A DNA stretch of 64,000 bases, taken from an uncultured Bacilli bacterium. GTDB lineage: Bacteria; Bacillota_I; Bacilli_A; RF39; UBA660. A program made the position numbers and the translations under genes. The DNA is taken from contig CANRBV010000001.1 in the NCBI GenBank assembly GCA_947628965.1, positions 41,225 through 105,224 on the forward strand, read 5' to 3'. The notes below the pieces were generated by a model. That model ran no database searches. It was not told the DNA's origin and worked only from the letters and a program-made list of their open reading frames with translations. Below, piece after piece: positions 8,772-37,510 of the stretch. Within the stretch, counting starts at the first letter, position 1, and every line of letters begins with the position of its first letter.

Positions 8772-8800
8772 GAATACCTGCGCGTATTCCTTTCTCTAGA
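8772..8800 (+). terminator. Putative terminator after the chaperonin-like operon
   Basis: gaatac-ctgcgc-gtattc hairpin followed by a T-rich tract. Confidence 0.3.
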
Positions 8801-8968
8801 TTGTTTTTTTAAATACCTGGTCGCATTTAAAAACAATTTATTAAAACATAACTTTTATTATGTCTTAATCATAAATGGGGCAAAATTCCAATAGGCATAA
8901 AACCTTTTTTATTTGCTCTCTTTTAATAACTTTATTTTATTAAAATTCCTTTTATTTGTCAATAAATT

Positions 8969-10663
<1,695 letters not shown>

Positions 10664-10780
10664 TTATATTAAAAATACTACTATATTTTTTTTAATATTT
10701 TCTCCTCTCACTACTTATTATATGCAAAAATATTTTTTTTTAATGATTAGCCCCAAAAAACTTAAAAAATAGAGAAGATA

Positions 10781-11371: not shown

Positions 11372-11378
11372 TTTATAC

Positions 11379-11639
11379 CTACTTTGCTAAAAAATTGCTT
11401 ATTTCTCTAAAGATTCTATCTATAATAACATCTTCAAATGTTCCTACTAATTCTACTATGATATTATTATCTTTTAATTCACCAATGAAGTTAGAACATG
11501 CTATTAAAAATGGAAATTCTTTTTTTCTTTCTTTTTCTTCTTCCAATGTATCCAAAATATTATCAACATAACCATCACAGACAAATGATAATATTTTTCT
11601 TAATTCATTTTCTCTCATTTTATGGCACCTCCTTACCAT
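11379..11639 (-). CDS. Hypothetical protein (86 aa)
   Basis: ORF 8 nt downstream of the resolvase gene's start, same strand. Confidence 0.45.
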   Translation of the reverse strand: MVRRCHKMRENELRKILSFVCDGYVDNILDTLEEEKERKKEFPFLIACSNFIGELKDNNIIVELVGTFEDVIIDRIFREISNFLAK

Positions 11640-11795
11640 AAAATATTATAGAAACATTCGTTCTATTTCTCAACCAATTTATTTAAAAATCTCAAAAAAA
11701 TTTATAAACATTTAAAAAATCAATTTTAAACTTTTATAAACATAAAAAAAGACTTAATCTTAATAAGAATTAAATCTTTATAAAATTACACTTTT

Positions 11796-12293
11796 TTAAA
11801 CACTATATAAATTCTTTATTTCTTCGCTTGGCAATACTAATGTAAAATCAATATCATAAATATTTATTAACTCATTTAATTTTTTAACAATTTCTTTTGC
11901 TATATCATTATGCTTATAACCATGTACCCCTGTCCCTATGCTAACACTAATAATACTTTTATAGCCATTATCTTTTGCTGATATAAATATTTTTTCATAA
12001 CTATTTAATAAATCTAATAGGGGAGAATTGCTTTCATAATATTTTGGAGAATATATATGCAAAATATCAATACCTAAATCAAAACCAGGACTATATCTAA
12101 TTTCATTAACTCTCATATTTTCTTTATAATTCTTTTTACAATAATCTTCTAACAATTCTTTATTTGCCTTTTTATATATTGCCCCACAAACACCACTACC
12201 ACATATCATATATTTATTATTACTATTAACTATTAAATCTTTATTTTCTAAATAATCAAATATATTGCCACTTATAACATTTAACTTACCCAT
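11796..12293 (-). CDS. Macro-domain protein (ADP-ribose binding / ADP-ribosyl hydrolase-like)
   Basis: ISGNIF...IVNSNN...GSGVCGAIYKKAG pattern corresponds to the macro-domain Gly-rich ADP-ribose pocket. Confidence 0.65.
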   Translation of the reverse strand: MGKLNVISGNIFDYLENKDLIVNSNNKYMICGSGVCGAIYKKANKELLEDYCKKNYKENMRVNEIRYSPGFDLGIDILHIYSPKYYESNSPLLDLLNSYEKIFISAKDNGYKSIISVSIGTGVHGYKHNDIAKEIVKKLNELINIYDIDFTLVLPSEEIKNLYSV

Positions 12294-12310
12294 TAGACCA
12301 CCTAAAATAT

Positions 12311-13216
12311 TTATTCAAATTTATTTAATATTTGCCCATTTCTATAATAATCTTTATCAGCATATCTAATGCATATTACATTATTATTGCTATCTAAATA
12401 AATAATAATATTATCAATATCATTACTTTTTATTCTATAACCTTTTGACCCATAACCCTCAAAACCATCTAAACTCTCGCTATCTGCTTTAATACTATCA
12501 AATTTATCAATACCTACTTTATTTAAAATATTATATATATTATCAGCTTGTTCTTCACTTATATTCATTTCGCTTTTTATTTTATTACTATAATCAATAT
12601 TTTTACCACTATTTAAAACAGCAATAACTAATATTATTATAACAAATATTATAATTCCTAAAAATACATAACCTAAAACATTTAGCCTTTTATATGCCTT
12701 TTCATTTATAATAATCTTACAATTAGGACATTTAATATCGCTAATACTTAATTCTTTGCCACACTTAGGACATTTTAAATCGCCTTTTGATAAATTAACA
12801 ACACTATTTAAACATTTAACAAACTTACTCCCAGAAAATGCACCATTTACATAAACACTAATAACTTTATCTTCGCCATTTTCTTTATAATTAACAATTA
12901 TATATTGCACATCTTCCTTTATTTGCTTTTTGCCCGTGCCACTTAAACCACCTAAAACTAAACCAACATTACCAAACAATAAACCACCAGCAACACCTCT
13001 GCCAATAGCACTTTTATTTTTTTCTACTATATGCTTATCACTAATAACCCCAGCATTAACAATATCTTTTAATGCTATTTCCTTAAATACTTGCCCTCTA
13101 ATATCGCAATATTTTAAATTATAATTAGTAATTTTTAATATGCAATTCGCATCTTCTCTAATTTCTAATCCCTCATAATGCTTTGCATTAACTTTTAATA
13201 TTTCTTTTTCTTTCAT
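12311..13216 (-). CDS. Hypothetical zinc-ribbon membrane protein
   Basis: Gly-rich segment; CPKCG...CPNCK zinc ribbon; single TM helix; C-terminal domain of about 90 aa. Confidence 0.55.
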   Translation of the reverse strand: MKEKEILKVNAKHYEGLEIREDANCILKITNYNLKYCDIRGQVFKEIALKDIVNAGVISDKHIVEKNKSAIGRGVAGGLLFGNVGLVLGGLSGTGKKQIKEDVQYIIVNYKENGEDKVISVYVNGAFSGSKFVKCLNSVVNLSKGDLKCPKCGKELSISDIKCPNCKIIINEKAYKRLNVLGYVFLGIIIFVIIILVIAVLNSGKNIDYSNKIKSEMNISEEQADNIYNILNKVGIDKFDSIKADSESLDGFEGYGSKGYRIKSNDIDNIIIYLDSNNNVICIRYADKDYYRNGQILNKFE

Positions 13217-13343
13217 TTTCTACACCTTTCTTTATAACTTTTCTATATCAATGCTTTACTTAGCAAATAGCCAATTTTTTGATAAATAATATATAACTAT
13301 ATTAAAATTATTAAATCTTTTAAAAACGAGCAATAAATAGAAA

Positions 13344-14135
13344 TTATAATTCACTCAATACTTTATTTATAAACTTTTCTTTATTTCTGCCAATACTAAT
13401 ATTATCTAAATAAAAATTCCCTGAACCTATTAACCAAAATATTTTATCTACTTTATAAGGACTTTCATTGACAGCATTAGCCATTTCTATAACTGCCTTA
13501 TATACAGAATAATCATTATTTTTACACAAATTAAAAGCAAAAAATATATCTTTAATATGAACATCTGCTTTTGGATATTCTTTAAAGCCTAATTCTTTTA
13601 AAAAATCACAAGCGAGAGGAAATCCTAAACCAATTATTTCTTTTTCTAATAACATAGGCAGAGCAGCAGAGGAAAGAGAATTATAACTAAACATTTTGAC
13701 AAACTTATCAAAATCTTTTTCACTTTTAAATTTTTCTACAAATTCACAAGCAGATATAACTGACTTAGCATATAATCTCCATAGATTATTTTTACTTTCT
13801 TTATTTTTAATTACAAAATTATTATCGAATTCTTTTAATAAACTATCAGCATTATAATTACTTAATATTTTTTTACTATCATAATGACATAGAATATTAT
13901 TGAATGCATCTTTTCTTTCTGCTTTTTCTAAGCCAATAACATTAGATGACATTTGCCTATTTTGCAATGATAATAATAATCTATATAAAATATCATTTTT
14001 GCTTTTAAAATTCTTTTTTACATTAAAATATATATTTATATCTTTTATTTCTCTAGGACATAATTCCATTAAAAACTTATAAGCACTATTATATATTTTC
14101 TTTAATTTAATATTCCTTGCTTCTATATCACTCAT
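13344..14135 (-). CDS. Hypothetical protein (about 263 aa; start taken at MSDIEARN with GAGGT RBS)
   Basis: ORF; internal ATG preceded by gaggt at 8-nt spacing. Confidence 0.5.
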   Translation of the reverse strand: MSDIEARNIKLKKIYNSAYKFLMELCPREIKDINIYFNVKKNFKSKNDILYRLLLSLQNRQMSSNVIGLEKAERKDAFNNILCHYDSKKILSNYNADSLLKEFDNNFVIKNKESKNNLWRLYAKSVISACEFVEKFKSEKDFDKFVKMFSYNSLSSAALPMLLEKEIIGLGFPLACDFLKELGFKEYPKADVHIKDIFFAFNLCKNNDYSVYKAVIEMANAVNESPYKVDKIFWLIGSGNFYLDNISIGRNKEKFINKVLSEL

Positions 14136-16034: not shown

Positions 16035-16111
16035 TGGGGCGAAATGTGGGGATCGAACCCACGCATACCGGAGCCACAATCCGGCGTGTTAACCACTTCA
16101 CCAATTCCGCC
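16035..16111 (-). tRNA. tRNA-His: tRNA-His (anticodon GUG) with encoded G-1 and 3' CCA
   Basis: Folded by hand: 8-bp acceptor stem including G-1:C73; anticodon loop TTGTGGC (GTG); T-arm GTGGG-TTCGATC-CCCAC; CCA encoded. Confidence 0.9.
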
Positions 16112-22740: not shown

Positions 22741-23640
22741 TTAAATTTTATTTTTTTTCTTCTTTTTAATAAGAAAATATCCACCAAGCACAAGAAGCAA
22801 AGCAACAGCAAAACTAATTAAAATGTATTTTAAATTAAAAGTTTTTGTTTCTTCTTGTTCATTTTCTTCAAGGATTTCATTTTTTTCATCTGTTTTGTTT
22901 TCTACTTCATCTTCTTTACTTACATCTGTTTCGTTTGTATTTGCATCATTATTTATAGTATTGTTGTTTTCAGTAGTAGTATTAGAACTTGCATTATTAT
23001 TAGTAGTAGTAGTACTTGTATTCTTATTCGTAGTACTCGTATTTTTATTTTCTTCTTTTTCTTTATCTTGTTCTTTATTTTTATCGGTACTAGAAGACTC
23101 CTCTTTAGAAGAAGTATCTTCCTCTTGGTTTTCACTACTATTTATTTTATAAGTAAAGTTGTTTTTTTCAACTTCAGGAGTAATTTCATGAGACTTCCAA
23201 GCATTATCTAATGTTGTTAAAGACCCACATTGAATCGTATAGGAGATATCTTTTTTACTAGAAGTATCAAATAGAATATTTCCTAGTACTAAATCTTTAT
23301 CGATATTTAATAAATTGTGACTTGTTCCTACGCCACCTGTTACTACAACAATATTTAATTCTTTTGTTTTATCATCATAAGAAGTTTTTGTAGTAAAATT
23401 ACTACTTGTTAGTTTGCTATCTAAATTCATTTTTTGAAAGTTGATATTTCCATCTACTTTTAACGTAATATCAAGTCCTCCAATAAAACCATCTTCAAAA
23501 TGTAAAACGGATTTTATATTTCCATTACCCTCTTCGTGAAAAGTTAACTTTGTTGCAGCGTTTACAGAAGAAAGAGAAAGAAATAAACTGAGTACCAAAG
23601 TGGTAACAATTTTTATAAATGTTCTTTTCATTCTCTTCAC
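22741..23640 (-). CDS. Secreted membrane-anchored surface protein: N-terminal beta-rich (possibly cohesin-like) module, S/T/N/E-rich linker, C-terminal TM anchor
   Basis: Signal peptide; about 150-aa beta-strand-type segment; low-complexity linker; C-terminal hydrophobic helix + KKKKKNKI tail; 4-nt overlap with the giant upstream gene. Confidence 0.6.
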   Translation of the reverse strand: MKRMKRTFIKIVTTLVLSLFLSLSSVNAATKLTFHEEGNGNIKSVLHFEDGFIGGLDITLKVDGNINFQKMNLDSKLTSSNFTTKTSYDDKTKELNIVVVTGGVGTSHNLLNIDKDLVLGNILFDTSSKKDISYTIQCGSLTTLDNAWKSHEITPEVEKNNFTYKINSSENQEEDTSSKEESSSTDKNKEQDKEKEENKNTSTTNKNTSTTTTNNNASSNTTTENNNTINNDANTNETDVSKEDEVENKTDEKNEILEENEQEETKTFNLKYILISFAVALLLVLGGYFLIKKKKKNKI

Positions 23641-26600
23641 CTCTTATTACTAATTTCCATTTGTTTTAACTTACTATATTCTTTTAAATCCTTTAGAACA
23701 ATTGATGTACTTGTTAATCGTTGTCCTTCATGCGTAATAGCATCATTTACACGATATAGATAAGCTCGAATACTGGTGCTAGACTTTCTCATTTTTTCGT
23801 ATTCTTCTTTACTCATAACATATAGCCACGTTCCATTTGCAACATCATAAACCGTATGATCACTATTTAATTCAGCAAAGATTAATTGATATCCGCCATA
23901 GACTTTTGCCTCATCATTACTATCTGCAATTAATACTGTATTAAACGCAGGGTTACCACGATAAGAACCTTCTATAACAACAGATCCAGCTGTAATTTTA
24001 CCATCTGGGTCGTTTTCACAACCACTTTCTAAATAACAATAATCACTTGTTAATACACCAATATTTGTAATATCGACATTATCTCCTGGAGGAGCAATCA
24101 CATCAATTTCTGCACCAGATAAAACATTATTACCATCAGATTCAATCTTAATATAATTTATATCATTATAAGTCCATAATTGACTTTCACTATCAGTATT
24201 TTGTCCCATGAAGTAAATGATTTCTTCTGGTTTTTCGCTTGTTAAAGTAAACGTACCTTTTCTTGCAAGATGCCAATCATTATCATTTCCTGTAGAACTT
24301 ACATATACTTTATATTTAGTAATTGTATTTTCATCTAGTTTATCATTTTCTACTAAGGCATGATACTTAATACCACTTACAGACATTCTATTATTTAAAT
24401 TTAATAAAACATAAGCATTTCCATTATCCACTGTAATACTTGGTTTATCACTGGTTTGATTTAAAGTTTTTACTTTTTCTGTGCCTTTAAATCCTGTTTC
24501 AATTTTACCATCAATTAAGTTGTTTACTTTTAATGTAGCATAATCCATTTCTTCGTTTTCATTATCGACAATTTCATTTGCTTCTTTTACATTTGAAGTA
24601 ATACTAAAGGCATCCTTTTTAACACTACCATCATGACTTATTTTTACTTCTTCTAAAGTAACTTCATTCGTTTTATGTAAATAATAATCATAAGCAACCA
24701 CACTATATGTATAAGCTCTATTATTTTCCGCTCCAACGTTGTCAACAAATTCATTCGTACCCTTTTCAACAAAGCCAATAGAAACACCATTACGAAGAAT
24801 TTCATAACCTAAAATCTTATCGTTGTCTTTATTAACATTAAACTCTAAAGTAACACGTTTATTTTGACTATCAGCATCTCTAATAGAAGATTCTAAAATA
24901 TTGGCACCTTCATTAATTCCAACACTTTGACGCAAAGCAAAACGTCTTGCTTGATCATTTAAGTAGTAAATCGCTCTTTTTTCTTTTGCATAGTTTAATT
25001 CTTGTAATTCTTCTTTTAAAGAGCTAGATGCTTTTAATCCCCAAATTTCAAAAAAGTTCGTTAAGTCTTTCTTGACAGCCATACAAGCATAAAGAATAGT
25101 TAAATCGTCTCTAGAATAATTTTTGGTATTCTTATATGTACGAGCAATTTTATTTATTTTTGCGTAAATTGAATTTTGATCTTCAAATGTTTTTTCATTA
25201 TCATAAGCAAGATGTAATTGCCAGTACATTCCTAACTGAACAAAAACATTTTGAGCTCTTCCCGTTGTATGGGAAGTTACTTTTTCATAAATTTTATCAT
25301 AACCATTGTTTTCTAAACGGGAAGGATCACTATCATTGCTTGTTTGAGCAAGCAAAGAATAAATATTATTCGTTACTTCTGCAAAAACAGTATCTTTTAA
25401 ATTGATTTGATGTCCAACTTCATGACTAATACCCCATCCAAAATAACCTGTTTTGGTATTACTATTGCGACTGGCTTGAACAAGGCCTGCAATTGAACCA
25501 TATTCAATGCCTATATGGTAACCTCCAGCATACATAAAAGCTCCATCAAACATTTGCATATAACGAACATTAATTCTCGCTTTTGGCATTTTATCCGTTT
25601 TTTCTGTTTGGTCTGTATCACTAAATCCTTTTTGACGATAGAATAGTTCCATCATTTCATCGAAGGCTTCCATAGATTCATATAAACGATTTGTTTTTTC
25701 TTCAATGGTTTTTTTATTTGATTTTAAAGCATCTTCTACAGCTACACTGGAAACGGACAACAAACCGTATTTTGTTACAATTTCTGTAGAGCCTAAAACA
25801 CTTTTTTGTTTATCAAAGCTTTTTCCGATAGATGCATAAGCACTTTCTAAAGTACTATTGTAATTTTCTAATTCTTTAATATATTTTTTTATTGCTGCTT
25901 TTTTATCTGTCTCATTTTCCAATAAGGTTGTATCAACCATTGGAATTTTAGTTCCTCCACTTACACGCACTTTTATTGGATTAGTAGTACTAGGTGTACT
26001 TGTATAGCGAATATAAACGCTTCCACCACGTTCATCAGTAGAAGAACCAATTTGTGGAACTGTAATAATATTTAAACCCTTATGTAAACTTTCCGTTGTA
26101 TAAGCTTTATTCCATTCACTTGCTTCAGCATGGTATTGAGTAAATATCACTTGGGCATTAATTGCCCCATTACTTCCAACATAAACATTGATTGTCTCTC
26201 CAGGTCTAGCAACAATTCCTAAAGGTTGATAATCACTAATCGTCATTGCAAATTTAACATGACCATTATACGAATTGGAAATGTTTGGATTTAGAGTAAT
26301 AACATCATCAATATGTTCATCATTTAATATTTTCTCCGCATAATCCAAATCTGCAAGTACGCTATCTTTATAAGGAGAATACTCTCCATTATCTTGTTCA
26401 TTTGCTCTTTTTCTTAATTCATTAATTTGCTTTTGATCTACGCCCTCTGCTAGGACAAGACGAAGATCGTCTGTAAATAAGGCAGCAACATCGTCCACTA
26501 ATGAATCGTAATGATAAAATTTTACTTCATCAATTTTAATATCACGAACATTTCCAGCAACAGTTAATCCAAATGCTACCGCTTTAGCAGTAATTGGATT

Positions 26601-28808
26601 TTCTAATTTTAATACATAGTATTTACGTCCCTTTTCATCTTGTTTTGAAAGAAGGGTTCCTTTTACTTCTTTACGCTCTGTATTGTCATAAATCTCTTGG
26701 TTAGACTCCCAATAATGCAATTTAACATCATTGCTATTTGGTCCACCAGATTTTAAAGAAGCCGCATAATTATCTGGAACTGTTAAGACAAATTCATCCA
26801 TTTGATAGGCATTATCTAAAACAATCACTGGGGTTCCTAAGTTGTAAGCACCATTTGCTGAAATTTGCCAATCATTATGATACCAATAAGTGTCATAATG
26901 GTCATCAACAATCGCAAATTTATTATCATTCGTCATGGTTCCCGTATGATAGAATACGTTTTCAATATGATCAGTTTTCTTATTTTTTTGATCATAACCA
27001 CTATTAATTAATTTATATTTTGGTACAATTGCAGCACCTGCTTCTTTCGTAGTTGCTTTTACTAAAGTATAACTATCACTTTCTCCTAAGTCATTTACTC
27101 CAAGTACATAAGCTTCATATTCAGTATCAGCTTTTAACCCACGTACAGAATAACTATTTGTCGAAATAGATTCTACAACAGAATAAACAGCCGTTCCAAC
27201 TTCACGATAATATAATTTATAAGATTTGGTATCGTCCATTTTTTTCCAACTAAAGTCTATTCCTCCATAGGTAGGAGTTGCAACCACCATATCTACTTTT
27301 GGTGGTTTTCTTGTTGCTTGTGGAGTTCCTTCGTGAGCATCACTCCAACCACTACGCCATTCTTGATTTACAGATTGAACGTATATATAATATGTTTCAT
27401 AATTTTTTAAATCTTCAATTGTAAAGGTTGTAAAAGTAGTTTGGAAAATAACTCCACTTTCCATTTTAGGCCCTACAATCTTAATTTCATAACCTGTTAC
27501 ATTTGGTACATCGTGAAAAGTAATAGTTAGTTGTTCACTTTTTGTATCATCAACATGAATATTTTGAGGAACATAAAATCCATCTGGTTCTTTTGTTTTT
27601 GTTTTAACATTATTTAAAAATTCTACTTTTGCTATATCTGCTAAAGTATTTGAAGAAGTTTCGGTAATTATAATAGTTACTTTTTTAACAGCAACTTGTT
27701 TTCCTAAGTCTACTTTAATTGTCCCTTCACTTGCTTCGTCTGTAAATAAATGTACTTCATTTAAACCTTGTAAAGTATCATCTACTTCATATTCAAGAGT
27801 TTCATTATCCTCTGTTAAAACGAGTAATTTCATTTTTTTAGGAATATTTTCTTCTCCTATTCCAATTCTAATTTCACTCATTTCAACAGTTTCACTATTA
27901 GAATTTTTTCCTAAATCAAGTGCAAACTCAATTGGATTATCTATAGAAATAGCTTCTTCATTTGCAGATTTTAAAGTTACAATTCCTGTATCACTAAATA
28001 AATCACTTAAATTACTTTCCTCACTAATTGTTGTTCCATTTGCTACTTCTAAAGACACATTTTCATTATTCATGATAAGACTTGTATTTTCAATTTTAGC
28101 ACTTTCTTTTTTAGAATTTAAAATTGCTGTTATGTAATTTAAATCTGCAATATCAACAACTCCATCTAAATTTAGATCATTTTTCGTGTCATTATTTTTA
28201 ATAGATTCCATTAAAATCTCTTCATCTTTTTTATTTACTTGATTGTCTTGATTTACATCACCAATTTCAAACATTCCAGCTTCATTAGATAAACTTATTC
28301 TTTTAGAAAAATCATCTAAAGTAACATCTACGCTATAGGTTACAAAATGGTTCCCGCTAAGTTCTAAAGTATACTTTCCTGTATTTAGTGAATATAAATT
28401 CATACTATAGTAAACTATATTTTCACTAGTAACGTCTCCTGATAAAACAAAACCATTCGTATTTCGTTTTGTAATTAAAGAACGGATAGTTTGTGTACCT
28501 AATTTAATAGAAGTTTCTAAAATACCATCTTTAGCGTTTTTCATTTCATTTAATGAAATAGAGGCTTTGTTATTATTTTCATCAATAATGGATAAAGCAA
28601 TATTTGTTTCTTCTCTATTTCGAAAAGGAAGAGCTAAATGAAGTTCTACTTCTATATTCCCTTTTTCTTGTATATCTCCTAAAGCAATACTACGAGTTTC
28701 TTCCCTTGTTTCCATTGCCAAAACAATTAAAGGTGAAAAATTATAAAAAAGCATTGCCCATATTAATAAGATTGATACTAGTTTATTTAAAATTTTCATA
28801 CTAACCAC
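23637..28808 (-). CDS. Giant secreted multidomain protein (1723 aa) with dockerin-like Ca-binding repeats, FN3-like modules and an M60-like/enhancin-type HExxH zinc-peptidase domain
   Basis: Signal peptide; GDVNQDNQVN...DLNLDGVVDIADL dockerin repeats; GWGISHEVGHQ zinc-binding motif. Confidence 0.7.
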   Translation of the reverse strand: MVSMKILNKLVSILLIWAMLFYNFSPLIVLAMETREETRSIALGDIQEKGNIEVELHLALPFRNREETNIALSIIDENNNKASISLNEMKNAKDGILETSIKLGTQTIRSLITKRNTNGFVLSGDVTSENIVYYSMNLYSLNTGKYTLELSGNHFVTYSVDVTLDDFSKRISLSNEAGMFEIGDVNQDNQVNKKDEEILMESIKNNDTKNDLNLDGVVDIADLNYITAILNSKKESAKIENTSLIMNNENVSLEVANGTTISEESNLSDLFSDTGIVTLKSANEEAISIDNPIEFALDLGKNSNSETVEMSEIRIGIGEENIPKKMKLLVLTEDNETLEYEVDDTLQGLNEVHLFTDEASEGTIKVDLGKQVAVKKVTIIITETSSNTLADIAKVEFLNNVKTKTKEPDGFYVPQNIHVDDTKSEQLTITFHDVPNVTGYEIKIVGPKMESGVIFQTTFTTFTIEDLKNYETYYIYVQSVNQEWRSGWSDAHEGTPQATRKPPKVDMVVATPTYGGIDFSWKKMDDTKSYKLYYREVGTAVYSVVESISTNSYSVRGLKADTEYEAYVLGVNDLGESDSYTLVKATTKEAGAAIVPKYKLINSGYDQKNKKTDHIENVFYHTGTMTNDNKFAIVDDHYDTYWYHNDWQISANGAYNLGTPVIVLDNAYQMDEFVLTVPDNYAASLKSGGPNSNDVKLHYWESNQEIYDNTERKEVKGTLLSKQDEKGRKYYVLKLENPITAKAVAFGLTVAGNVRDIKIDEVKFYHYDSLVDDVAALFTDDLRLVLAEGVDQKQINELRKRANEQDNGEYSPYKDSVLADLDYAEKILNDEHIDDVITLNPNISNSYNGHVKFAMTISDYQPLGIVARPGETINVYVGSNGAINAQVIFTQYHAEASEWNKAYTTESLHKGLNIITVPQIGSSTDERGGSVYIRYTSTPSTTNPIKVRVSGGTKIPMVDTTLLENETDKKAAIKKYIKELENYNSTLESAYASIGKSFDKQKSVLGSTEIVTKYGLLSVSSVAVEDALKSNKKTIEEKTNRLYESMEAFDEMMELFYRQKGFSDTDQTEKTDKMPKARINVRYMQMFDGAFMYAGGYHIGIEYGSIAGLVQASRNSNTKTGYFGWGISHEVGHQINLKDTVFAEVTNNIYSLLAQTSNDSDPSRLENNGYDKIYEKVTSHTTGRAQNVFVQLGMYWQLHLAYDNEKTFEDQNSIYAKINKIARTYKNTKNYSRDDLTILYACMAVKKDLTNFFEIWGLKASSSLKEELQELNYAKEKRAIYYLNDQARRFALRQSVGINEGANILESSIRDADSQNKRVTLEFNVNKDNDKILGYEILRNGVSIGFVEKGTNEFVDNVGAENNRAYTYSVVAYDYYLHKTNEVTLEEVKISHDGSVKKDAFSITSNVKEANEIVDNENEEMDYATLKVNNLIDGKIETGFKGTEKVKTLNQTSDKPSITVDNGNAYVLLNLNNRMSVSGIKYHALVENDKLDENTITKYKVYVSSTGNDNDWHLARKGTFTLTSEKPEEIIYFMGQNTDSESQLWTYNDINYIKIESDGNNVLSGAEIDVIAPPGDNVDITNIGVLTSDYCYLESGCENDPDGKITAGSVVIEGSYRGNPAFNTVLIADSNDEAKVYGGYQLIFAELNSDHTVYDVANGTWLYVMSKEEYEKMRKSSTSIRAYLYRVNDAITHEGQRLTSTSIVLKDLKEYSKLKQMEISNKR

Positions 28809-28877: not shown

Positions 28878-31163
28878 TTATCGATTTTTTTCTTTATATG
28901 ATATATCTCGTTTAATGGAATATAATTTTATTAATTGTTCATAACTTATTTGTATTACTTTTCCACCTTTAGGATTTATCTTATTTCCGAAAACAATCCA
29001 AATAACATCCATAGGAATATCAGGCATACTTGCTATTCCATCAGTAAATATTATTTTATTTTCAACTCTTTTAGTAAATGCGCGAACAGCTACATTAAAG
29101 TCAGTTCCACCATTTCCTTCAAGTCCTTCAAATCCCATATTTTCAATATCTGCTTCAGTTCTTATTTCGTGAAAGCCATAAAATTTCGTATCAAAACAGC
29201 CAACTTTTATCTTTGAGTACGGTAAGATATTTAAACATTCTCTTAAAAAATTTTTTAGCAATCTTTCATTTACAGAACCGCTTGTATCCAATAAAATTTC
29301 TGTTTCTGCCTTTGGTTGTTCTTCTAAATTAGCATGTATAACGTCGTCTTCAATATAGGCATTTTTATAAGACCAATCAACATCGTATTGAATTGGTTCT
29401 TTTAATATATATCTCCAATCTATTATCGGTTTAGATTTTCCTATATCATTTATGATTCTCTGTTCGCTATTAGTAGATGTTCCAGCTTCCATTGCTTCTT
29501 GAGATACAGTTTCTATTGCTTGTTGAGATAAAACTTGCTTTAATTCTTCTAATTCTTTTCTCTTTTCTTCTAAATTTTTTTTAAAAGCGCTTTTCTCGCC
29601 CATTTTACTAATTTTGCCTATCTCTTGTTGTAATCTTTTTTCTTGTTGATTTTGTTCTTCCATTTGTTGCTCATCATCTTGAAATTCTTTTTTATCTTTT
29701 GATTCAGCTTCTTTTAGTTTTTTTACTGCATCTTTCCACATACTATGAGTATCATGACCTACATCATCATTTTGTTCTTCAGAAGGAATTGATTCTGATG
29801 AAGAAGTTCCTTGCCCTTGTGATTGATTTTCATTTTGATTTTGAGATTCATCTAAAGAACTTTGGGATTGATCTTGTGATCTTTGTTCAGATGTGCCCTG
29901 TTGATTTTGTGATGAACTTGTTTGTTCCTCACTTTTCTCTTCATTTTGTTCATTAGATTGAGATTCTTTTTTATTTTTTGATACAGCTTCTTTTAATTTT
30001 TTTACTGCATCTTTCCACATACTATGAGTATCATGACTTACATTATCATTTTGTTCTTCAGAAGGAATTGATTCTGATGAAGAAGTTCCTTGCCCTTGTG
30101 ATTGATTTTCATTTTGATTTTGAGATTCATCTAAAGAACTTTGGGATTGATCTTGTGATCTTTGTTCAGATGTGCCCTGTTGATTTTGTGATGAACTTGT
30201 TTGTTCCTCACTTTTCTCTTCATTTTGTTCATTAGATTGAGATTCTTTTTTATTTTTTGATACAGCTTCTTTTAATTTTTTTACTGCATCTTTCCACATA
30301 CTATGAGTATCATGACTTACATTATCATTTTGTTCTTCAGAAGGAATTGATTCTGATGAAGAAGTTCCTTGCCCTTGACCTTGTTGTCCTTGTTTAGAAG
30401 ATGATGAACTTTGTTGATTTTGTTGTGAATTGGATTGTTCTTGATTTTGTTCTTCATTTTGAGTTTCAGAATTTTGCCCTTGTGATTGATTTTCGTTTTG
30501 TTTTTGAGAACCTTTTGAAGAACTTTGCCCTTGACCTTGTTGCCCTTGTTTAGAAGATGATGAACTTTGTTGATTTTGTTGTGAATTGGATTGTTCTTGA
30601 TTTTGTTCTTCATTTTGAGTTTCAGAATTTTGCCCTTGTGATTGATTTTCGTTTTGTTTTTGAGAATCTTTTGAAGAATTTTGCCCTTGATCTTGTTGTC
30701 CTTGTTCAGAAGATGATGAACTTTGTTGATTTTGTTGATTACCTTGACCATTTTGTCTTTTACTTTGTTGCTTTTCTTTAAGTAATTTATCATAAAACTC
30801 TTCTGCATCGTAATTTATTGCTTCTGCAATATCTACTACACCATCAACAAGTTTCAACCCATCTCGTTTTAAAAATTGATTTATTACACCATCTGTTGCT
30901 ATATTCCAAACATAAGGATCTTTATTTTCACTTCTTCTTATATGATCAAACGCTATATGGCATACCTCATGAGCAAATATAAAAATTTGTTCATCTGTGT
31001 TAAGATTTTTTAAAAATTCTAGATTATAAAATATCGTTTGTCCATCAGTACATGCAGTTGATATTTTTTTATTCTCTCTATAGTTTACATTTGCAACTAC
31101 ACTCCCAAAGAAAGGGTATTTTACAAGCATTTTTCTTTTTACAGATTCAATATTAAAGTCCAT
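28878..31163 (-). CDS. HExxH metallopeptidase-like N-domain + long Q/S/N/E-rich repeat region + C-terminal vWA domain (COG3864/DUF2201-like, MoxR partner)
   Basis: FIFAHEVCHIAFDH (HExxH); C-terminal LLDTSGS MIDAS (DxSxS) motif; sits with a MoxR-like AAA ATPase. Confidence 0.7.
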   Translation of the reverse strand: MDFNIESVKRKMLVKYPFFGSVVANVNYRENKKISTACTDGQTIFYNLEFLKNLNTDEQIFIFAHEVCHIAFDHIRRSENKDPYVWNIATDGVINQFLKRDGLKLVDGVVDIAEAINYDAEEFYDKLLKEKQQSKRQNGQGNQQNQQSSSSSEQGQQDQGQNSSKDSQKQNENQSQGQNSETQNEEQNQEQSNSQQNQQSSSSSKQGQQGQGQSSSKGSQKQNENQSQGQNSETQNEEQNQEQSNSQQNQQSSSSSKQGQQGQGQGTSSSESIPSEEQNDNVSHDTHSMWKDAVKKLKEAVSKNKKESQSNEQNEEKSEEQTSSSQNQQGTSEQRSQDQSQSSLDESQNQNENQSQGQGTSSSESIPSEEQNDNVSHDTHSMWKDAVKKLKEAVSKNKKESQSNEQNEEKSEEQTSSSQNQQGTSEQRSQDQSQSSLDESQNQNENQSQGQGTSSSESIPSEEQNDDVGHDTHSMWKDAVKKLKEAESKDKKEFQDDEQQMEEQNQQEKRLQQEIGKISKMGEKSAFKKNLEEKRKELEELKQVLSQQAIETVSQEAMEAGTSTNSEQRIINDIGKSKPIIDWRYILKEPIQYDVDWSYKNAYIEDDVIHANLEEQPKAETEILLDTSGSVNERLLKNFLRECLNILPYSKIKVGCFDTKFYGFHEIRTEADIENMGFEGLEGNGGTDFNVAVRAFTKRVENKIIFTDGIASMPDIPMDVIWIVFGNKINPKGGKVIQISYEQLIKLYSIKRDISYKEKNR
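29690..30790. repeat. Intragenic near-identical tandem repeats: 3 x 279 nt (about 29690-30370) and about 2.7 x 156 nt (about 30370-30790)
   Basis: Read in the DNA (gatacagcttcttttaatttttttactgcatctttccacatactatgag... at 29701/29980/30259; ccttgaccttgttg[t/c]ccttgtttagaag at 30373/30529/30685). Identical antisense ORFs offset by 279 nt in the track. Confidence 0.9.
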
Positions 31164-31173
31164 AATTTATTCC

Positions 31174-31569
31174 TCAAATATGAGCAACTAATGAATAAAT
31201 TTCTTCATTAATTGTTTCTTTATTTATATTTGTAGCTGTTAAAATGATTCTTGTGTTTTCTGGTATTTTAAATGTGGACACTTGTCTATACTCTAATAAT
31301 TCTTTAAATTTTAATTGCTCTTCTTTAGAGATACTATCAATATCTTTTATAACTATTATTTTAGCTTCATTTGTATTAGTTAAATCATAATACCATTTAG
31401 GAGCTAGGAAATCTACTCCCTCATAATAACCATTCAATTCTTTTGTTTCACAATTTGCTGGTATTATTACAGATTTTGGAATACTGATATTAGATGCAAA
31501 ATCAATAAGAATAGGAGCAACATTAATTGAAAGATAACTGTTTAACATATTCATTTTATCATTATTCAT
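31174..31569 (-). CDS. Hypothetical 131-aa protein, middle gene of the ATPase/vWA operon
   Basis: 4-nt overlap with the upstream ATPase gene; 10-nt gap to the vWA gene. Confidence 0.55.
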   Translation of the reverse strand: MNNDKMNMLNSYLSINVAPILIDFASNISIPKSVIIPANCETKELNGYYEGVDFLAPKWYYDLTNTNEAKIIVIKDIDSISKEEQLKFKELLEYRQVSTFKIPENTRIILTATNINKETINEEIYSLVAHI

Positions 31570-33494
31570 TTTTTTCTACCTCCCGCAGCAAGTCTGGCTT
31601 CAGCAATTAATTCTAGTCTAGATTCATCACCATGTGACCATAACGAATCAAATATTGCCCCAAACTCCGCTCCTAGACTTATTACGAAACTTCTTACTTT
31701 TGCCATATTTTTTTCGTCAACTTGAGAAAGACCCATTGTCGTAGCATATCTGGAGGCAGTATTTAATGATTGTATGTCTAGTCCACTATAGGTTCCATTT
31801 ATTACATCATTTAACGTTATAACTGGTTGATTGCAGAACTCTAAAAATTCTCTAGTTATATCTTCTCCCACTAAAGCTCTTAACATTCCTGGGCTTCCAG
31901 TAGCGTAAAGCATTTTAGAAGCCATTTCCCATTTTCTAGGATCAGCATTTGGCTTTACACCATTATATTGACTTCTTAATACTGCACCTTTTCTATAAGC
32001 TATATAGGAATAAATTGCAGGATGAATATTATGTTCACTTGCCCATTTTAACCATCCATCCGTTGTTGTTCTGATATATACATGTGCAAATCTATTAAAT
32101 AATGGTTCGGCTAATTGATTTGCTGATAAGGAATCTTTCATCTCATTACCAGCAGCAACTATTCTTGCATTATCTGGTAGTTGCCATATTCCATTTACTT
32201 CTCTATCCAAAATAATGTTAAAAGCTATTCCTTGAATACTAGGCAAAGCATTTGTTATCTCATCAAAGAAAACGATATGTAATTTATCAGGTTCTGCCTC
32301 ACATTTAGCTTCTAATTTTTTTAACCATGTAGGTTTTATATCAATCATTTCACCTTTTTCAGAATTATAAGCACTTTTTCCATTTAAACTTTCAGGTGTT
32401 GCATTTCTTAAATATATAATGACACAATCAGGGTCAATTTGTTTTACTCTTGCGCTTTTTCCTTCACTTGAAGCACCATGTAAAAATACAGGCACTCTAC
32501 TTGCAATTGCACCTTTAATAATTTCTTCTTCACTGACTTGTCCAAAATTAAATCCATAGGGATTGTTTTTTTCACTTCTTTCTGAATATTGATAAGAAGT
32601 ATTTTTTACTTTTTCAATTTCTTTTTGGTGCTGATTAGAAGTTTTGCCAGAATTTGCTTGTATCACTTTAGTTTTACTTGATACTATATCTCTTACAAAA
32701 TAAGTATTTAAAAAATCATACATATCTGTGCTGGTCCAATCAGAATCAGAATAAAAATAACCATCTTTATTAAATCTTATTCCCGATGCAATTATATTTT
32801 TGCTTAACATAACCTTTTTAAAATTATCAACATACCATTTAAGTGGAGATACCTCTATCCAAACAATATCTCCATTTTTATATTGTTCTCCATTTGAAAG
32901 TAAAGAAACACGTGGATTTCTATTATACACTCTTACATATTTTCTTCCATTATATTCAAATTCCTCATTTTTCATTGGGTAAAATCTTGTCAGTTTATCA
33001 TCGCATTTGATGGAATCCGTTGTATATGTTTTTCCAGTTTTTTTTAATATTGTACCAGATTGATATGCTTGTTCCAAATCATATTCCATAGATGAACTAA
33101 CGACATATTGTGGATATTCTCCATACTCTATTTCTACAAACCTATGTGGTAGTATTCTCGTTATTCCATTTGAAGAGTTAGATTGGTGAACGTCTAATAT
33201 AGTTGGGCGAACTCCATTTGTCCTAGTTCCAGCAGAAAATTTACTGATAGAACCATTTATATCAACAGCAAGTGGATTTCCTTGTCCATCAGAGCTCATT
33301 AAATTGTAATTACCTGTGTGCCCTTTTAAAGAATTATCATAATTTACATAAACATCTTCAGAAACGAAACCTCCTAATAATATAGCAAAATCTGTTATTG
33401 CACACTTTGCACCCATATTTTTTTTAATCATTCCATTAAAATCATAAATTTGTTCTGCATTAAGTAATGTAATTTCACCACTACCAAAATTCAT
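31566..33494 (-). CDS. MoxR-like AAA ATPase with an uncharacterised ~320-aa N-terminal domain
   Basis: Walker A GASSEGKS; Walker B IVFFDEITNA; AAGNE sensor region; no recognisable motif in the N-terminal half. Confidence 0.65.
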   Translation of the reverse strand: MNFGSGEITLLNAEQIYDFNGMIKKNMGAKCAITDFAILLGGFVSEDVYVNYDNSLKGHTGNYNLMSSDGQGNPLAVDINGSISKFSAGTRTNGVRPTILDVHQSNSSNGITRILPHRFVEIEYGEYPQYVVSSSMEYDLEQAYQSGTILKKTGKTYTTDSIKCDDKLTRFYPMKNEEFEYNGRKYVRVYNRNPRVSLLSNGEQYKNGDIVWIEVSPLKWYVDNFKKVMLSKNIIASGIRFNKDGYFYSDSDWTSTDMYDFLNTYFVRDIVSSKTKVIQANSGKTSNQHQKEIEKVKNTSYQYSERSEKNNPYGFNFGQVSEEEIIKGAIASRVPVFLHGASSEGKSARVKQIDPDCVIIYLRNATPESLNGKSAYNSEKGEMIDIKPTWLKKLEAKCEAEPDKLHIVFFDEITNALPSIQGIAFNIILDREVNGIWQLPDNARIVAAGNEMKDSLSANQLAEPLFNRFAHVYIRTTTDGWLKWASEHNIHPAIYSYIAYRKGAVLRSQYNGVKPNADPRKWEMASKMLYATGSPGMLRALVGEDITREFLEFCNQPVITLNDVINGTYSGLDIQSLNTASRYATTMGLSQVDEKNMAKVRSFVISLGAEFGAIFDSLWSHGDESRLELIAEARLAAGGRKK

Positions 33495-33804
33495 ATTTCA
33501 CCTCGTTCGCATATCATTTACATATATTTTACCATAAAATATTTAATAATAATATGTCAAAAAGTATAGTTTACAAAAATAAAGTAAAATATAGGAAATA
33601 AAATTAAAATTGACTTGATTTATGATTTTTTTGTTCTTCTTTATTTTTGAATAAAACTAAAATCTCGTTAATAACTATATTTTTATTGTGTAAATTTCAA
33701 ATTCTGTATCATTCTATTTATGATGTTACTAAAAAATACACAAAAAAATGTTATATCGGTATTTATTGATATAACATTTTAAGTGTTTAGTTTAAAGCAT
33801 TCTA

Positions 33805-36177
33805 TTATTTATCTCTTAATTTTGCTTTAAATGTTTCTTCTACTTTTTTTATTATTGCATTAAAAACTTCCATTACTTCTTCTTCTTGTAAAGTTCTTGT
33901 TTCATCTTTAAAGGTTAATTTATAAGCAATAGATTTTTTACCCTTTTCTATTTCAGGATATAAATCAAATACTTCACAAGTTGATAATATTCTTTTTCCC
34001 GTGTGAACAATTTCTTTTTTAATGCTTTCACTATCAATTTCGTTCGCTACAATAAAAGCTACATCTTTTACAATTTCTGGATATTTATTTGCTTCTTTAT
34101 ATTTTATAGGTTTAATACTTGCTTGATCTAAAATATTCATAGAAAGTTCACAAACAAAAAGTTCTTCTTTTAAAATATTTGGGTGTATTTTACCAATAAT
34201 ACCTACTCTTTTCTTATCTAGATAAATACTTGCACTAACTCCTGGATGTAAGGAATCTATTTCTTCACTTACAAAAGAAAAACGATTTTTAAAACCTAAG
34301 TAGGTAAGTAAGTTTTCAACTATTCCTTTTAATAAATAAAAGTCTGCTTTAATATTTATTCTTTGCCATTCATTTGTTAGATAGTTTCCTTTCATTAAAA
34401 TTGCTATTTTTGTTGTTTCATTAAAATCTTTATCATAAGTTTTAGCAATTTCATAAATATTGACATCCTTAACGTTTCTCTTTTTATTATATTCGTAGGT
34501 ATTTAATAAAGAGGGTAAAATGCTTGTACGAATAATACTTTTATCAACACTCATTGCATTTGGTAAAGTAATTGGTTCTTTTTGATCATAACAAAATAAT
34601 TTAGCCATTTCAGGACTAATTAAGGTATATGTTTTTACTTCGTTTAAACCAAGTGTTCTTAAACGTTTAGAAATTTCTTTTCGTATTTTAACATCTCCAA
34701 CATATTCTCCCATTCTAGTACTGGCAGTAGGCAAAGTAGAAATTAAGTTATGATAACCATAAAGTCTTCCAATTTCTTCAGCAATGTCGTTTACATTTGC
34801 ATCAATATCTAATCTCCTACTTGGAATTGTTACCATAAATACATCTTTTTCTAAAGTATAAGGAAAACCTAAACGATCCAATTCTTTTTCCATATCTTTT
34901 GTTTCAATAACTATACCAAGCATTTTATTTACATCTTCGGCTTTAAAATTAACTATTTTTGGTGTTTTATCGATTACATCATGTTTTACAGTATCCTTTA
35001 GTATAGTTGCATTAGCGTATTTTTCAAGTAAATGACAAGCTCGGTTAATAGCCATATTTGTATACTCATAACTTAAACCTTTTCCATAGCGAATAGATGC
35101 TTCGCTTTTTAAATTCAAATGACTTGCTGTATTTCGAATAGAAACAGCATCAAAAATTGCACTTTCTATTAAGATTGTTTTCGTATTTTCATCAACTTCA
35201 GTATTTTCTCCCCCCATAACTCCAGCGATACAAACTGGTTTATCGCCATCGGTAATTACAATATCGCTTGATTTTAAAGTTCTCTTTTTACCATCCAAAG
35301 TAACAATTTGTTCGTTTTCCTTAGCATCACGTACTAAAATATGATCTTTTAATTTCTCCTTATCAAAAAAATGAAGAGGTTGTCCAAATTCAAGCATAAC
35401 ATAGTTAGAAATATCAACAACATTATTAATTGGGCGCATTCCAGCAGCAGTAAGTCTTTTTTTAATAAATTCTGGACTTTCTTTAATTTCAACATTTGTT
35501 ACCATTTTGGCAAGATAATAAGGGCATTTTTTAGTTTCGACTTCTAATTTAAAATGATTTTTTATAGAATCACTATTTTCTTTATATTCTAGATTTGGTA
35601 ATGTTACTTTTTTATTTAGAATAGAAGCAATTTCATATGCGAAACCAATATGATAAAAACAATCATTATTACGATGTTTATGAATATCTAGTTCATACAA
35701 AGTATCATCATAACCTAAATATTTTAGTGCATCTACACCAACTGATGCTTTATTATCAACTTCATAAATTCCTTTTTGATAATTTTCTTCTGTTTTTTCT
35801 TCTAGTCCTAATTCAAATAAAGCGCAAAGCATACCATTGGATTCTACCCCACGAATTGTACTCTTTTTTATTTCAAAATCTCCAGGAAGTATTGCTCCTG
35901 GCAAAGCAACAATCACTTTTAAACCTGCTTTTACATTTGGGGCTCCACATACAATTTGGTAAGTCTCTTTTTCATTTACTTTTACTTGGCAAATATGCAA
36001 ATGGTCGCTATCTGGATGCGGTAGACATTCTAAAACTTCTCCAATTACTAAATGATCAATATGGTTCGTTATTACTTTTTCTACATTAATTCCAGCTTTC
36101 GTAATTTTTACTGCTAATTCTTTTAAATCCTCATCTTTAATATCTACATAATCACTTACCCACTCTAAACTAATCAT
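33805..36177 (-). CDS. pheT: Phenylalanine--tRNA ligase beta subunit
   Basis: MISLEWVSDYVD N-terminus; tRNA-binding, B3/4, B5 and FDX-ACB layout; follows pheS. Confidence 0.9.
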   Translation of the reverse strand: MISLEWVSDYVDIKDEDLKELAVKITKAGINVEKVITNHIDHLVIGEVLECLPHPDSDHLHICQVKVNEKETYQIVCGAPNVKAGLKVIVALPGAILPGDFEIKKSTIRGVESNGMLCALFELGLEEKTEENYQKGIYEVDNKASVGVDALKYLGYDDTLYELDIHKHRNNDCFYHIGFAYEIASILNKKVTLPNLEYKENSDSIKNHFKLEVETKKCPYYLAKMVTNVEIKESPEFIKKRLTAAGMRPINNVVDISNYVMLEFGQPLHFFDKEKLKDHILVRDAKENEQIVTLDGKKRTLKSSDIVITDGDKPVCIAGVMGGENTEVDENTKTILIESAIFDAVSIRNTASHLNLKSEASIRYGKGLSYEYTNMAINRACHLLEKYANATILKDTVKHDVIDKTPKIVNFKAEDVNKMLGIVIETKDMEKELDRLGFPYTLEKDVFMVTIPSRRLDIDANVNDIAEEIGRLYGYHNLISTLPTASTRMGEYVGDVKIRKEISKRLRTLGLNEVKTYTLISPEMAKLFCYDQKEPITLPNAMSVDKSIIRTSILPSLLNTYEYNKKRNVKDVNIYEIAKTYDKDFNETTKIAILMKGNYLTNEWQRINIKADFYLLKGIVENLLTYLGFKNRFSFVSEEIDSLHPGVSASIYLDKKRVGIIGKIHPNILKEELFVCELSMNILDQASIKPIKYKEANKYPEIVKDVAFIVANEIDSESIKKEIVHTGKRILSTCEVFDLYPEIEKGKKSIAYKLTFKDETRTLQEEEVMEVFNAIIKKVEETFKAKLRDK

Positions 36178-37222
36178 TATTTTTCTCCCTTCTATCAAAA
36201 TCTCTTATTTCTCTTAAATCAGTTTGATAAAATGTGCGAATATCACTAATGCCATATTTAAGCATTGCAAGTCGTTCTGCTCCAAAACCAAATGCAAAAC
36301 CACTCCATATATTTGGATCATAGCCACAATTTTTCAAAACATTAGGATGTACAATTCCAGCACCACTTACTGTAATCCATCCTGTATTTTTACATAAAGA
36401 ACAACCTTTTCCTTTGCAAGCAAAGCAAGAAATATCTGTTTCTACAGAAGGCTCGGTAAATTGGTAATAACTTGGTCTAAAGCGAACTTCACAACTTGAA
36501 CCAAATAATTTTTTAAAAATAGCATCCATTGTACCTTTTAAATCTGAAAGACTAACATTTTTATCGACAAGCAAACCTTCAATTTGCATAAATTGATGCG
36601 AATGGGTTGCATCATCATCATCTCTACGATACGTTTTTCCAGGGCAAATCATACGAATTGGCTTATCTCCACCCGCTTTAAGCATGGTTCTTGCTTGCAC
36701 TGGAGAAGTTTGACTACGCAACAAAATTTCTTCTTCTTTTATATAAAATGTATCTTGAGCATCTCTTGCAGGATGACCCTTTGGTATATTTAACAATTCA
36801 AAATTAAAACGATCTTCCTCTATTTCTGGTCCATCCACTACATCATAGCCCATAGACATACAAATATTTTCTATTTCTTCAATAATGTGTTCTAAGATAT
36901 TAGGTGCACCTAAAGGTATCTTTACTCCTGGTAAAGTAATATCAATTTTTTCCTTTTCCAACTTTTCTTTAATTTCTAAATCCTCATAATACCTTATTTT
37001 TTCTTCAATTTGAGAAGTAATTTCATTTTTTAAATCATTTAATATTTTTCCAAATTCTCTTTTCTCTTCATTATTTAATTCTTTTAAATGCATTGTTAAT
37101 TCATTAATAGGGCCTTTTTTTCCTAAATATAAAATTTTTAACTCATTCACTTCTTTTAAATTTGTTGCTTTTTCAATATTTGTTAAAGCTTGTTCTTTTA
37201 ATTTTTTTACTTTTTCATTCAT
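36170..37222 (-). CDS. pheS: Phenylalanine--tRNA ligase alpha subunit
   Basis: Class II aaRS motifs (HPARD, FRPSYYQFTEPS, GFAFGFGAERLAML); start set at MNEKVKK with GGAGG RBS. The longer track ORF runs through the leader terminator. Confidence 0.9.
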   Translation of the reverse strand: MNEKVKKLKEQALTNIEKATNLKEVNELKILYLGKKGPINELTMHLKELNNEEKREFGKILNDLKNEITSQIEEKIRYYEDLEIKEKLEKEKIDITLPGVKIPLGAPNILEHIIEEIENICMSMGYDVVDGPEIEEDRFNFELLNIPKGHPARDAQDTFYIKEEEILLRSQTSPVQARTMLKAGGDKPIRMICPGKTYRRDDDDATHSHQFMQIEGLLVDKNVSLSDLKGTMDAIFKKLFGSSCEVRFRPSYYQFTEPSVETDISCFACKGKGCSLCKNTGWITVSGAGIVHPNVLKNCGYDPNIWSGFAFGFGAERLAMLKYGISDIRTFYQTDLREIRDFDRREKNND

Positions 37223-37239
37223 TTTTTCTTCCTCCTTAA

Positions 37240-37480
37240 AATTAAAAAAGCCCCTTACAAATGTAAGGGACGAAATATAATCCGCGGTACCACCCAAATT
37301 CTAGAAATTTTCTAGCACTTATTTTAGATTTAACGCATCTGTACGATAAAATTAAAGCAAGTGAATTTCGCATTTATTCTTTATCTTTAGATAGTTTCAG
37401 CGTACCCTATCTAATCTCTGTTTGAAGATAGAATAAATCTACTTAAAATTGCTCTCAAACATTTTATTGAGTTTATTATA
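37240..37480 (-). promoter_or_regulatory. T-box riboswitch leader of pheST with intrinsic terminator (37244-37269)
   Basis: T-box conserved sequence AAUUUGGGUGGUACCGCGG on the minus strand (37282-37300); followed by cccuuaca-uuu-uguaaggg hairpin + U-run; ends immediately 5' of pheS. Confidence 0.8.
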
Positions 37481-37510
37481 GCACATAAATTTCATTTAAG
37501 TACAATCTTT

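Follow-up and report, generated by a model that had tools for sequence, protein, structure and literature searches.

The 64,000-nucleotide stretch analysed here (the window; contig CANRBV010000001.1 of an uncultured Bacilli bacterium, with a G+C content of about 28%) carries a cassette of three co-directional open reading frames (ORFs) on the minus strand. In the order of transcription they code for a putative sensor-ATPase of 642 amino acids (31566-33494), a protein of 131 amino acids (31174-31569) and an HExxH/von Willebrand factor A (vWA) protein of 761 amino acids (28878-31163). The coordinates and sizes given for these ORFs in a preliminary description of the same DNA, made from its sequence alone, were all reproduced in the ORF list, as was the 4-nt overlap between the ATPase gene and the gene of the 131-residue protein. 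No second copy of any cassette gene was found within the window. What the window carries is an intact copy of a three-gene cassette which is mobile; in many related loci this cassette is accompanied by a diversity-generating retroelement (DGR), and in the window it is not.

The C-terminal half of the ATPase (residues 323-642; 31566-32528, minus strand) corresponds to a MoxR-like AAA+ core with a helical lid and is connected to the N-terminal domain by a disordered linker. The MoxR-type motifs placed in this half by the preliminary description are indeed there: Walker A (GASSEGKS, G340-S347), Walker B (IVFFDEITNA, D411-E412), the sensor-1 residue N450 and R468 show no variation in 41 homologues. 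The family phrog_1297, annotated as 'ATPase', matched residues 324-611 with an E-value of 1.2e-43. Pfam AAA_5 scored 17.5 bits on the window protein, which is under its gathering score of 22, whereas a phage homologue from the same PHROG family passes it with 25.6 bits. The structural matches of the core to classical MoxR proteins were weak and its predicted model is of low confidence, and neither single-sequence nor profile searches against the PDB yielded anything meaningful. The assignment as an ATPase is based on the phrog_1297 match, the motifs and the weak structural matches taken together. The search for homologues returned 2869 proteins, the best 120 of which are full-length with 59-70% identity, and a 100% identical protein (P0001) is on record; the identity to the DGR-linked homologues is 55-71%. 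The gene of the vWA partner protein (DUF2201), with its metal ion-dependent adhesion site (MIDAS), lies two genes downstream and is kept in 72 of 81 loci, i.e. 80 related loci, some of which are cited below by L numbers, and the window. Neither a signal peptide nor a transmembrane segment is recognisable at the N-termini when the sequences are read, so the system should act in the cytoplasm.

The N-terminal part of about 270 residues (32685-33494, minus strand) is, by the homologue searches, a variable domain of wide distribution with a distant relationship to DUF6273. When residues 1-320 were searched alone, 1495 cluster representatives were obtained (E<=1e-3), many of them standalone proteins of 270-350 residues; relatives of the domain are also found fused to other modules, e.g. 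DUF4116 or ankyrin repeats. DUF6273 itself was matched in 6 of 53 relatives and in a few precomputed homologue annotations. The AlphaFold model of the domain is confident (pLDDT about 90); a similarity to hemopexin repeats, which came from the comparison of its profile with the PDB, was judged spurious. Among the related loci the identity in this domain is 30-52% as against 62-89% in the AAA module. Compared with typical DUF6273 proteins, its motifs seem to stand in a permuted order (residues 30-100 and 210-240; within 33494-32685): the '...GVRPxL' part, which bears the variable region (VR) of the DGR-linked relatives, comes first and the 'VWIEVSPLKWYVD...LSK' part follows about 110 residues later.

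The 131-residue protein was aligned collinearly with residues 324-452 of its cognate ATPase core in a profile-profile comparison (E 2.7e-4, probability 41%). The two have Walker-B-like and sensor-1 positions in common, and the P-loop stretch is deleted in the small protein. In our reading the protein is an inactive paralogue of the ATPase core, namely an AAA+ alpha/beta domain without a P-loop. In the Clostridia cassettes (Zhenpiania, Lentihominibacter and others; L059, L061, L062, L064, L066-L068, L073, L074 and L076) the ATPase gene is followed directly by the DUF2201 gene and the small gene is absent. The N-terminal extension, the small gene and the repeat linker of the third protein had been regarded as lineage-specific elaborations; with 2869 ATPase matches, 362 small-protein matches and 239 species genomes the first two are found throughout the family, and only the linker is special to the window copy.

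In the 761-residue protein Pfam identified DUF2201_N (2.3e-34, 119.7 bits; cut-off 23.2) and the VWA-like DUF2201 at residues 623-739 (6.1e-10, 39.7 bits; cut-off 26.4), and phrog_1314 matched with an E-value of 5.5e-60. From the latter Pfam match, the alignment occupancy and the MIDAS residues the vWA/MIDAS domain was delimited to residues 561-761 (28878-29483, minus strand). In 69 homologues conservation reaches at least 95% both for the H65-E66-x-x-H69 motif of the zincin-like metallopeptidase domain and for the MIDAS residues D626-T627-S628-x-S630, T687 and D708. Both domain calls of the preliminary description thus stand; of the Pfam families which it expected, DUF2201_N and VWA were found above their cut-offs, whereas AAA_5 fell short. 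Further matches from PADLOC, NCBIfam and Pfam (ThsB/TIR-like, PEP_resp_reg, lpg0008 effector, DUF1392, M48 and SprT-like) were far under the cut-offs and were put down to noise or to general zincin/AAA likeness.

The peptidase and vWA domains of this protein are joined by a linker with two recent tandem duplications (29679-30737, minus strand), both of them in frame. Tandem Repeats Finder (TRF) resolved a 279-bp unit present 2.5 times with 98% matches (29679-30377) and a 156-bp unit present 2.4 times with 97% matches (30369-30737). The near-identical repeats described earlier in a disordered linker were therefore recovered, but the linker is not featureless, since the 279-bp repeat triplicates the motif DVGHDTHSMW (DVGHDTHSMWKDAVKK) at about residues 285, 378 and 471. 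Across the family this motif, DVGHDTHSMWKDAVKK, is 70-90% conserved and sits between the peptidase and vWA domains. Through these duplications the window protein, with its 761 residues, is the longest member of the family, the others having 381-641. The copy number of the repeats in the window may be uncertain and is possibly an assembly estimate, because three other, independent assemblies of the same organism (L081-L083), with an identical ATPase, end within the repeats, about 450-550 nt into the DUF2201 gene (about 30600-30700 of the window).

A complete DGR, consisting of the Avd gene, a template repeat (TR) and a reverse transcriptase (RT) gene, is situated directly upstream of the ATPase gene in at least 17 of the 80 related loci. 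The RT gene codes for an RVT_1 protein of 338-354 amino acids, the best PDB match of which was the 328-residue chain 8ub7_A (6.9e-34), which we take to be the DGR RT of a Bordetella phage, while a group II intron RT was matched with 3.7e-8. The RTs contain LGNQSSQ, presumably the motif of the DGR type. The ORF preceding the RT gene was recognised as Avd by phrog_3206 (1.8e-12 in L002, 5.5e-11 in L086), and between the two genes codons ~66-100 of the ATPase gene recur as a copy of 80-100 nt. In nine pairs compared, 99 of the 103 mismatches between the two copies are at adenines of the intergenic one, in which adenine makes up 242 of 800 nt. Since such adenine-specific mismatches are the signature of DGRs, the intergenic copy is the TR and the ATPase segment is the VR, so that the DGR of the relatives rewrites about 30 codons of the N-terminal domain. 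In L002, L018 and L020 the TRs are identical and the VRs differ, and in six near-identical loci, three of them with the same TR, 25 of the 120 variable columns are concentrated in nt 201-300 of the 1929-nt gene, a density five times that of the rest. These differences, together with the adenine pattern, mean that the DGRs of the relatives are active in natural populations and that their target is the N-terminal domain of the ATPase. On the ATPase tree, loci with an RT are dispersed across at least three deep branches outside the subclade of the window, and several other loci keep truncated RT remnants; for these reasons the link between DGR and cassette looks old and repeatedly lost.

Relatives of the cassette, searched for with two peptide patterns, are encoded in 239 of 185,579 species genomes. 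The carriers are mostly metagenome-assembled genomes (MAGs) of gut Bacilli, labelled Tenericutes, Mycoplasma, Coprobacillus sp. CAG:605 or Clostridium sp. CAG:417, with some Clostridia (e.g. Zhenpiania, Lentihominibacter), and one of them is a complete chromosome of 1.46 Mb. The order ATPase, small gene, DUF2201 gene is retained in nearly all loci, and the flanks are not conserved: outside the cassette and the DGR genes every ORF cluster occurs in seven loci at most. The cassette is mobile, being present in integrative mobilizable or conjugative elements (IME/ICE), in the moron position of a prophage and at several chromosomal sites. Copies with a DGR were found beside a Mob_Pre relaxase gene, within an element with a type IV secretion system and a serine recombinase, and in one prophage (L086, IMGVR_UViG_3300006217_003178), where avd, RT, ATPase, small and DUF2201 genes (8201-13616) follow the tail, holin and endolysin genes. 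This prophage is the only one of 2.9 million IMG/VR contigs with a full-length relative. In some loci there are tandem extra paralogues of the sensor-ATPase, up to five or six (L042, 4379-18034), and one small gene and one DUF2201 gene are sometimes common to the whole array. Such paralogues were seen in L042, L053 (8554-16574), L007, L009, L035, L044, L047, L056, L058 and L077; in L053 four ATPase copies have 100% identical 5' regions, possibly an assembly artefact. A housekeeping triad at a fixed position, which according to the preliminary description would speak against a conflict system, was ruled out by the comparison of neighbourhoods, since the flanking gene clusters differ between the loci.

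By homology the closest kin of the cassette is the pair of a MoxR-like ATPase and a DUF2201 protein encoded by N4-like (Schitoviridae) and group 2.2 jumbo phages. Residues 324-611 of the ATPase and the HExxH-vWA protein have homologues there with 24-29% identity in tblastn, in 682 phage records, and the gene order is the same: in the Acinetobacter phage nACB1 (L084, 3468-6251) a 137-residue ORF lies between the ATPase gene and a DUF2201_N+DUF2201 gene. No homology of this middle ORF to the small protein was detected (hhalign probability 0.1%), and a PA5oct neighbour, annotated as 'homing endonuclease', turned out not to be a DUF2201 protein. The phage ATPases, in contrast to that of the window, have about 370 residues and lack the N-terminal variable domain, the phage DUF2201 proteins lack the long repeat linker, and no DGR link is reported for the phage versions. 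The role proposed for the phage pair is in the assembly and processing of the virion (PMC7824862).

By their logic the closest systems are the DGR-linked ternary systems of the VMAP type, the defining features of which are not found in the cassette. In these systems, as described by Kaur et al. 2020 (PMC7159879), the third component is a VMAP, iSTAND, FtsH or beta-propeller protein, the gene order is VMAP-MoxR-vWA and variable effectors are placed C-terminal to the vWA domain; CLec sensors diversified by DGRs have been linked to MoxR-vWA systems (PMC7159879; Dore et al. 2024, PMC10907252). A MoxR-class ATPase, a vWA protein and a peptidase are common to both, as is a hypervariable binding domain, diversified by a DGR, for which the role of a sensor is proposed. 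The FGS or CLec domain of the VMAP-type systems, however, occupies a C-terminal position, either in the vWA protein or in a distinct target, while the variable domain of the cassette is N-terminal and on the ATPase. Their peptidase is trypsin- or caspase-like, that of the cassette is of the zincin type and forms one protein with the vWA domain, and in place of their third component the cassette has a P-loop-less AAA paralogue encoded between the ATPase and vWA genes. The hosts are different as well, multicellular cyanobacteria, actinobacteria and proteobacteria (PMC7159879, PMC10907252) as opposed to small-genome gut Bacilli and their mobile elements. None of the Pfam domains of VMAP, iSTAND, FtsH or beta-propeller proteins was found in the cassette, and the vWA protein ends with its vWA domain, no effector following it. 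The earlier assignment to the vWA-MoxR systems predicted by the Aravind group has therefore to be withdrawn on account of the missing components and the different gene order (PMC7159879).

N-terminal DGR targets of the DUF6273-like C-lec type are known from the tentaclins and other proteins of gut phages (PMC10743442). These resemble the cassette of the relatives in the VR near the 5' end of the target gene, in a DUF6273-related N-terminal domain, in the avd-TR-RT layout and in their setting in gut Firmicutes and phages. The tentaclins, on the other hand, run into Ig-like/Fn3 domains and are receptor-binding proteins of the virion, whereas in the cassette the domain continues into an AAA+ ATPase of the cytoplasm, and the protein of the window does not attain the Pfam DUF6273 threshold. 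In the case of the classical pairs RavA-ViaA, CbbQ-CbbO and NorQ-NorD the likeness consists of the structure of the AAA+ core, by weak matches, and the obligatory vWA/MIDAS partner gene. None of them has a hypervariable N-terminal domain, a peptidase on the vWA partner or a linkage to DGRs or mobile elements, and the profile search gave no PDB match to them, the sequence similarity being too low.

The reading which we prefer, with a probability of roughly 0.55, is that the cassette codes for a conflict (defence) system acting by recognition and proteolysis, in which a variable sensor, an AAA+ ring and a MIDAS-coupled peptidase work together. The vWA/MIDAS domain is the usual docking partner of MoxR ATPases. 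Gene 1 would provide a cytoplasmic protein in which the variable, ligand-binding N-terminal module is fused to the MoxR-like ATPase, the P-loop-less product of gene 2 would most likely co-assemble with the ATPase ring or cap it, and gene 3 would supply a zincin-like HExxH peptidase on a flexible linker to the vWA/MIDAS domain. The variable domain would bind a protein or another ligand, most likely of an invader (phage or plasmid). ATP-driven remodelling of the ring, with the inactive AAA subunit, would then act through the MIDAS domain so that the peptidase is activated or the bound ligand is handed over to it, and the outcome would be proteolysis of a component of the invader or of a host target (abortive infection). 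To the gene content, the motifs, the family membership, the DGR targeting in the relatives and the mobility, which are established directly, this scheme adds ligand sensing, the coupling of ATPase, vWA domain and peptidase, and the defence outcome, which we infer from what is established for MoxR-vWA pairs and from the role of sensors that was proposed in DGR-linked MoxR systems (PMC7159879, PMC10907252). A defence role of the cassette is plausible in this light. The idea of a conflict system put forward in the preliminary description has gained from the adjacent DGR acting on the N-terminal domain in the relatives, from the mobility and from the tandem paralogues; on the other side, PADLOC gives nothing and the window copy has no DGR. 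A more far-reaching version, possible but tentative, would regard the family as anticipatory immunity at the protein level, with DGR-programmable recognition mounted on an AAA+ motor and a zincin which destroys the captured invader proteins or triggers abortive infection; the window copy would then be a germline-fixed receptor.

Several observations weigh against the proposed recognition-and-proteolysis system, and those on the window copy come first. No RT was detected in the 64-kb window by tblastn with the RTs of the relatives (best E 0.6), nor was a TR or Avd found there, and the VR-equivalent segment (residues 66-96; 33207-33299, minus strand) has no second copy which could serve as a template. 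In the neighbour-joining tree of the AAA module the subclade of the window, made up of MAGs of rabbit-gut Bacilli, contains no RT-bearing member. The sensor of the window is fixed, unless a DGR acts on it in trans from elsewhere in the genome. Residues 66-96 are nevertheless the most variable stretch within the clade (40% identity, as against 64-74% in the rest of the N-terminal domain and 90% in the AAA module), which counts in favour of the proposed system; the segment retains GTTCGCCCA of the GC-rich 3' end of the VR, and in the frame of the VR the conserved 'WW' and 'VR' residues have given way to others. Furthermore, the window ATPase has no Pfam match to DUF6273 (none at E<=0.1), the fold of its N-terminal domain could not be assigned from structure searches, and the AAA core of the AlphaFold model has low confidence. 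No PADLOC model (PADLOC-DB 2.0) matches the cassette; the sole match, ThsB/TIR-like, reached 16 bits over residues 159-211 of the ATPase, and the other two proteins gave none at all. The literature searched holds no experiment on any MoxR + DUF2201 pair and links DUF2201 (PF13203, PF09967, COG3864) to neither a function nor DGRs, and ATPase-fused targets are not mentioned in the DGR surveys consulted. Copies without RT stand among housekeeping genes, after pheST (the window, L008, L038), after rpsF-ssb-rpsR (L004-6, L039-40) and at other sites, and a published proposal regards the ATPase/DUF2201 pair of phages as assembly chaperones (PMC7824862).

The last of these points leads to the alternative that the cassette is cargo serving the mobile element itself, a MoxR/vWA chaperone-peptidase which matures or processes proteins of the phage or of the transfer apparatus, or which acts in counter-defence by neutralising defence proteins of the host. 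The DGR would direct it to changing host proteins, and the copy in the window would be the leftover of an integrated element. It would fit the PHROG matches of the ATPase (1.2e-43) and of the DUF2201 protein (5.5e-60), the 682 phage records, the order of ATPase, small ORF and DUF2201 genes in the N4-like phage nACB1, the role in virion assembly proposed for the jumbo-phage pair by Iyer et al. (PMC7824862) and the presence of DGR-bearing copies on IME/ICE and a prophage. However, the phage homologues align only with residues ~325-611 and have no N-terminal variable domain, and the full-length form was met in a single one of the 2.9 million IMG/VR contigs as against 239 species genomes. In the prophage the cassette follows the lysis genes and is not among the structural genes, the window and many other loci have no adjoining mobile-element genes, and a decaying remnant would hardly keep its ORFs intact and its catalytic motifs conserved, so we consider this explanation unlikely. 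That the window copy is the non-functional relic of a once DGR-linked cassette, with the repeat expansion of gene 3 as a sign of decay, seems very improbable: the missing RT and TR, the replaced 'WW' and 'VR' residues and the unusually long, duplicated linker would be in line with it, but the three ORFs are intact with the 4-nt coupling overlap, Walker A/B, HExxH and MIDAS are all there, the duplications keep the frame, and the entire RT-less subclade retains an intact cassette.

The cassette might also be a housekeeping MoxR-vWA chaperone of the kind of RavA-ViaA, CbbQ-CbbO or NorQ-NorD, engaged in the maturation or repair of complexes, the N-terminal domain being a substrate adaptor and the peptidase taking part in quality control. 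MoxR and vWA pairs are well established in such roles (cited in PMC7159879), RT-less copies are located among translation genes, the position after pheST recurs in three loci, and PADLOC does not recognise the genes. Against this, the spread is patchy (the search patterns found 239 of 185,579 species genomes), the genomic position varies, the N-terminal domain is hypermutated by a DGR in the relatives, and both tandem arrays of paralogues and copies on mobile elements occur; a housekeeping role is therefore quite unlikely.

On the minus strand of the window pheS (36170-37297) and pheT (33805-36198) precede the ATPase gene, so the cassette is transcriptionally downstream of pheST and not, as stated in the preliminary description, directly upstream of it. 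The 310-bp spacer between pheT and the cassette (33495-33804, minus strand) has one promoter-like site in a consensus scan (33560 to 33531, TTGACA-18-TATGGT), the count of such sites not being above that of shuffled sequences; neither an RT remnant nor a TR was found in the spacer. Upstream of pheS (37298-37510) no T-box or other leader was found with Rfam at gathering thresholds. Directly downstream of the cassette (23637-28808, minus strand) a protein of 1723 amino acids is encoded, possibly a secreted enzyme which degrades mucin or glycoproteins. Its Pfam domains are fibronectin type III, M60-like_N and the enhancin-like Peptidase_M60. The sole RNA gene of the 64-kb window is a tRNA-His gene (16035-16110).

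DGR-diversified sensors tied to NTPase conflict systems are described as a hallmark of multicellular bacteria, and most DGR targets of the gut are considered to be tail fibres of phages and surface adhesins. What is new in the family described here is a hypervariable module at the N-terminus of a cytoplasmic AAA+ ATPase, accompanied by a metallopeptidase-vWA partner and an inactive AAA paralogue, and the hosts of the DGR-diversified family are reduced-genome gut Bacilli and their mobile elements. The window locus alone is an ordinary-looking, DGR-less member, the value of which is that of an entry point to the family. If the proposed function is true, a compact system of three genes (six with the DGR) would couple programmable protein recognition to proteolysis, and if the reading as anticipatory immunity also held, unicellular gut Bacilli with small genomes and their mobile elements would carry an antibody-like diversification coupled to targeted proteolysis. 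The family may also offer the first functional handle on the widespread MoxR + DUF2201 pair of N4-like and jumbo phages.

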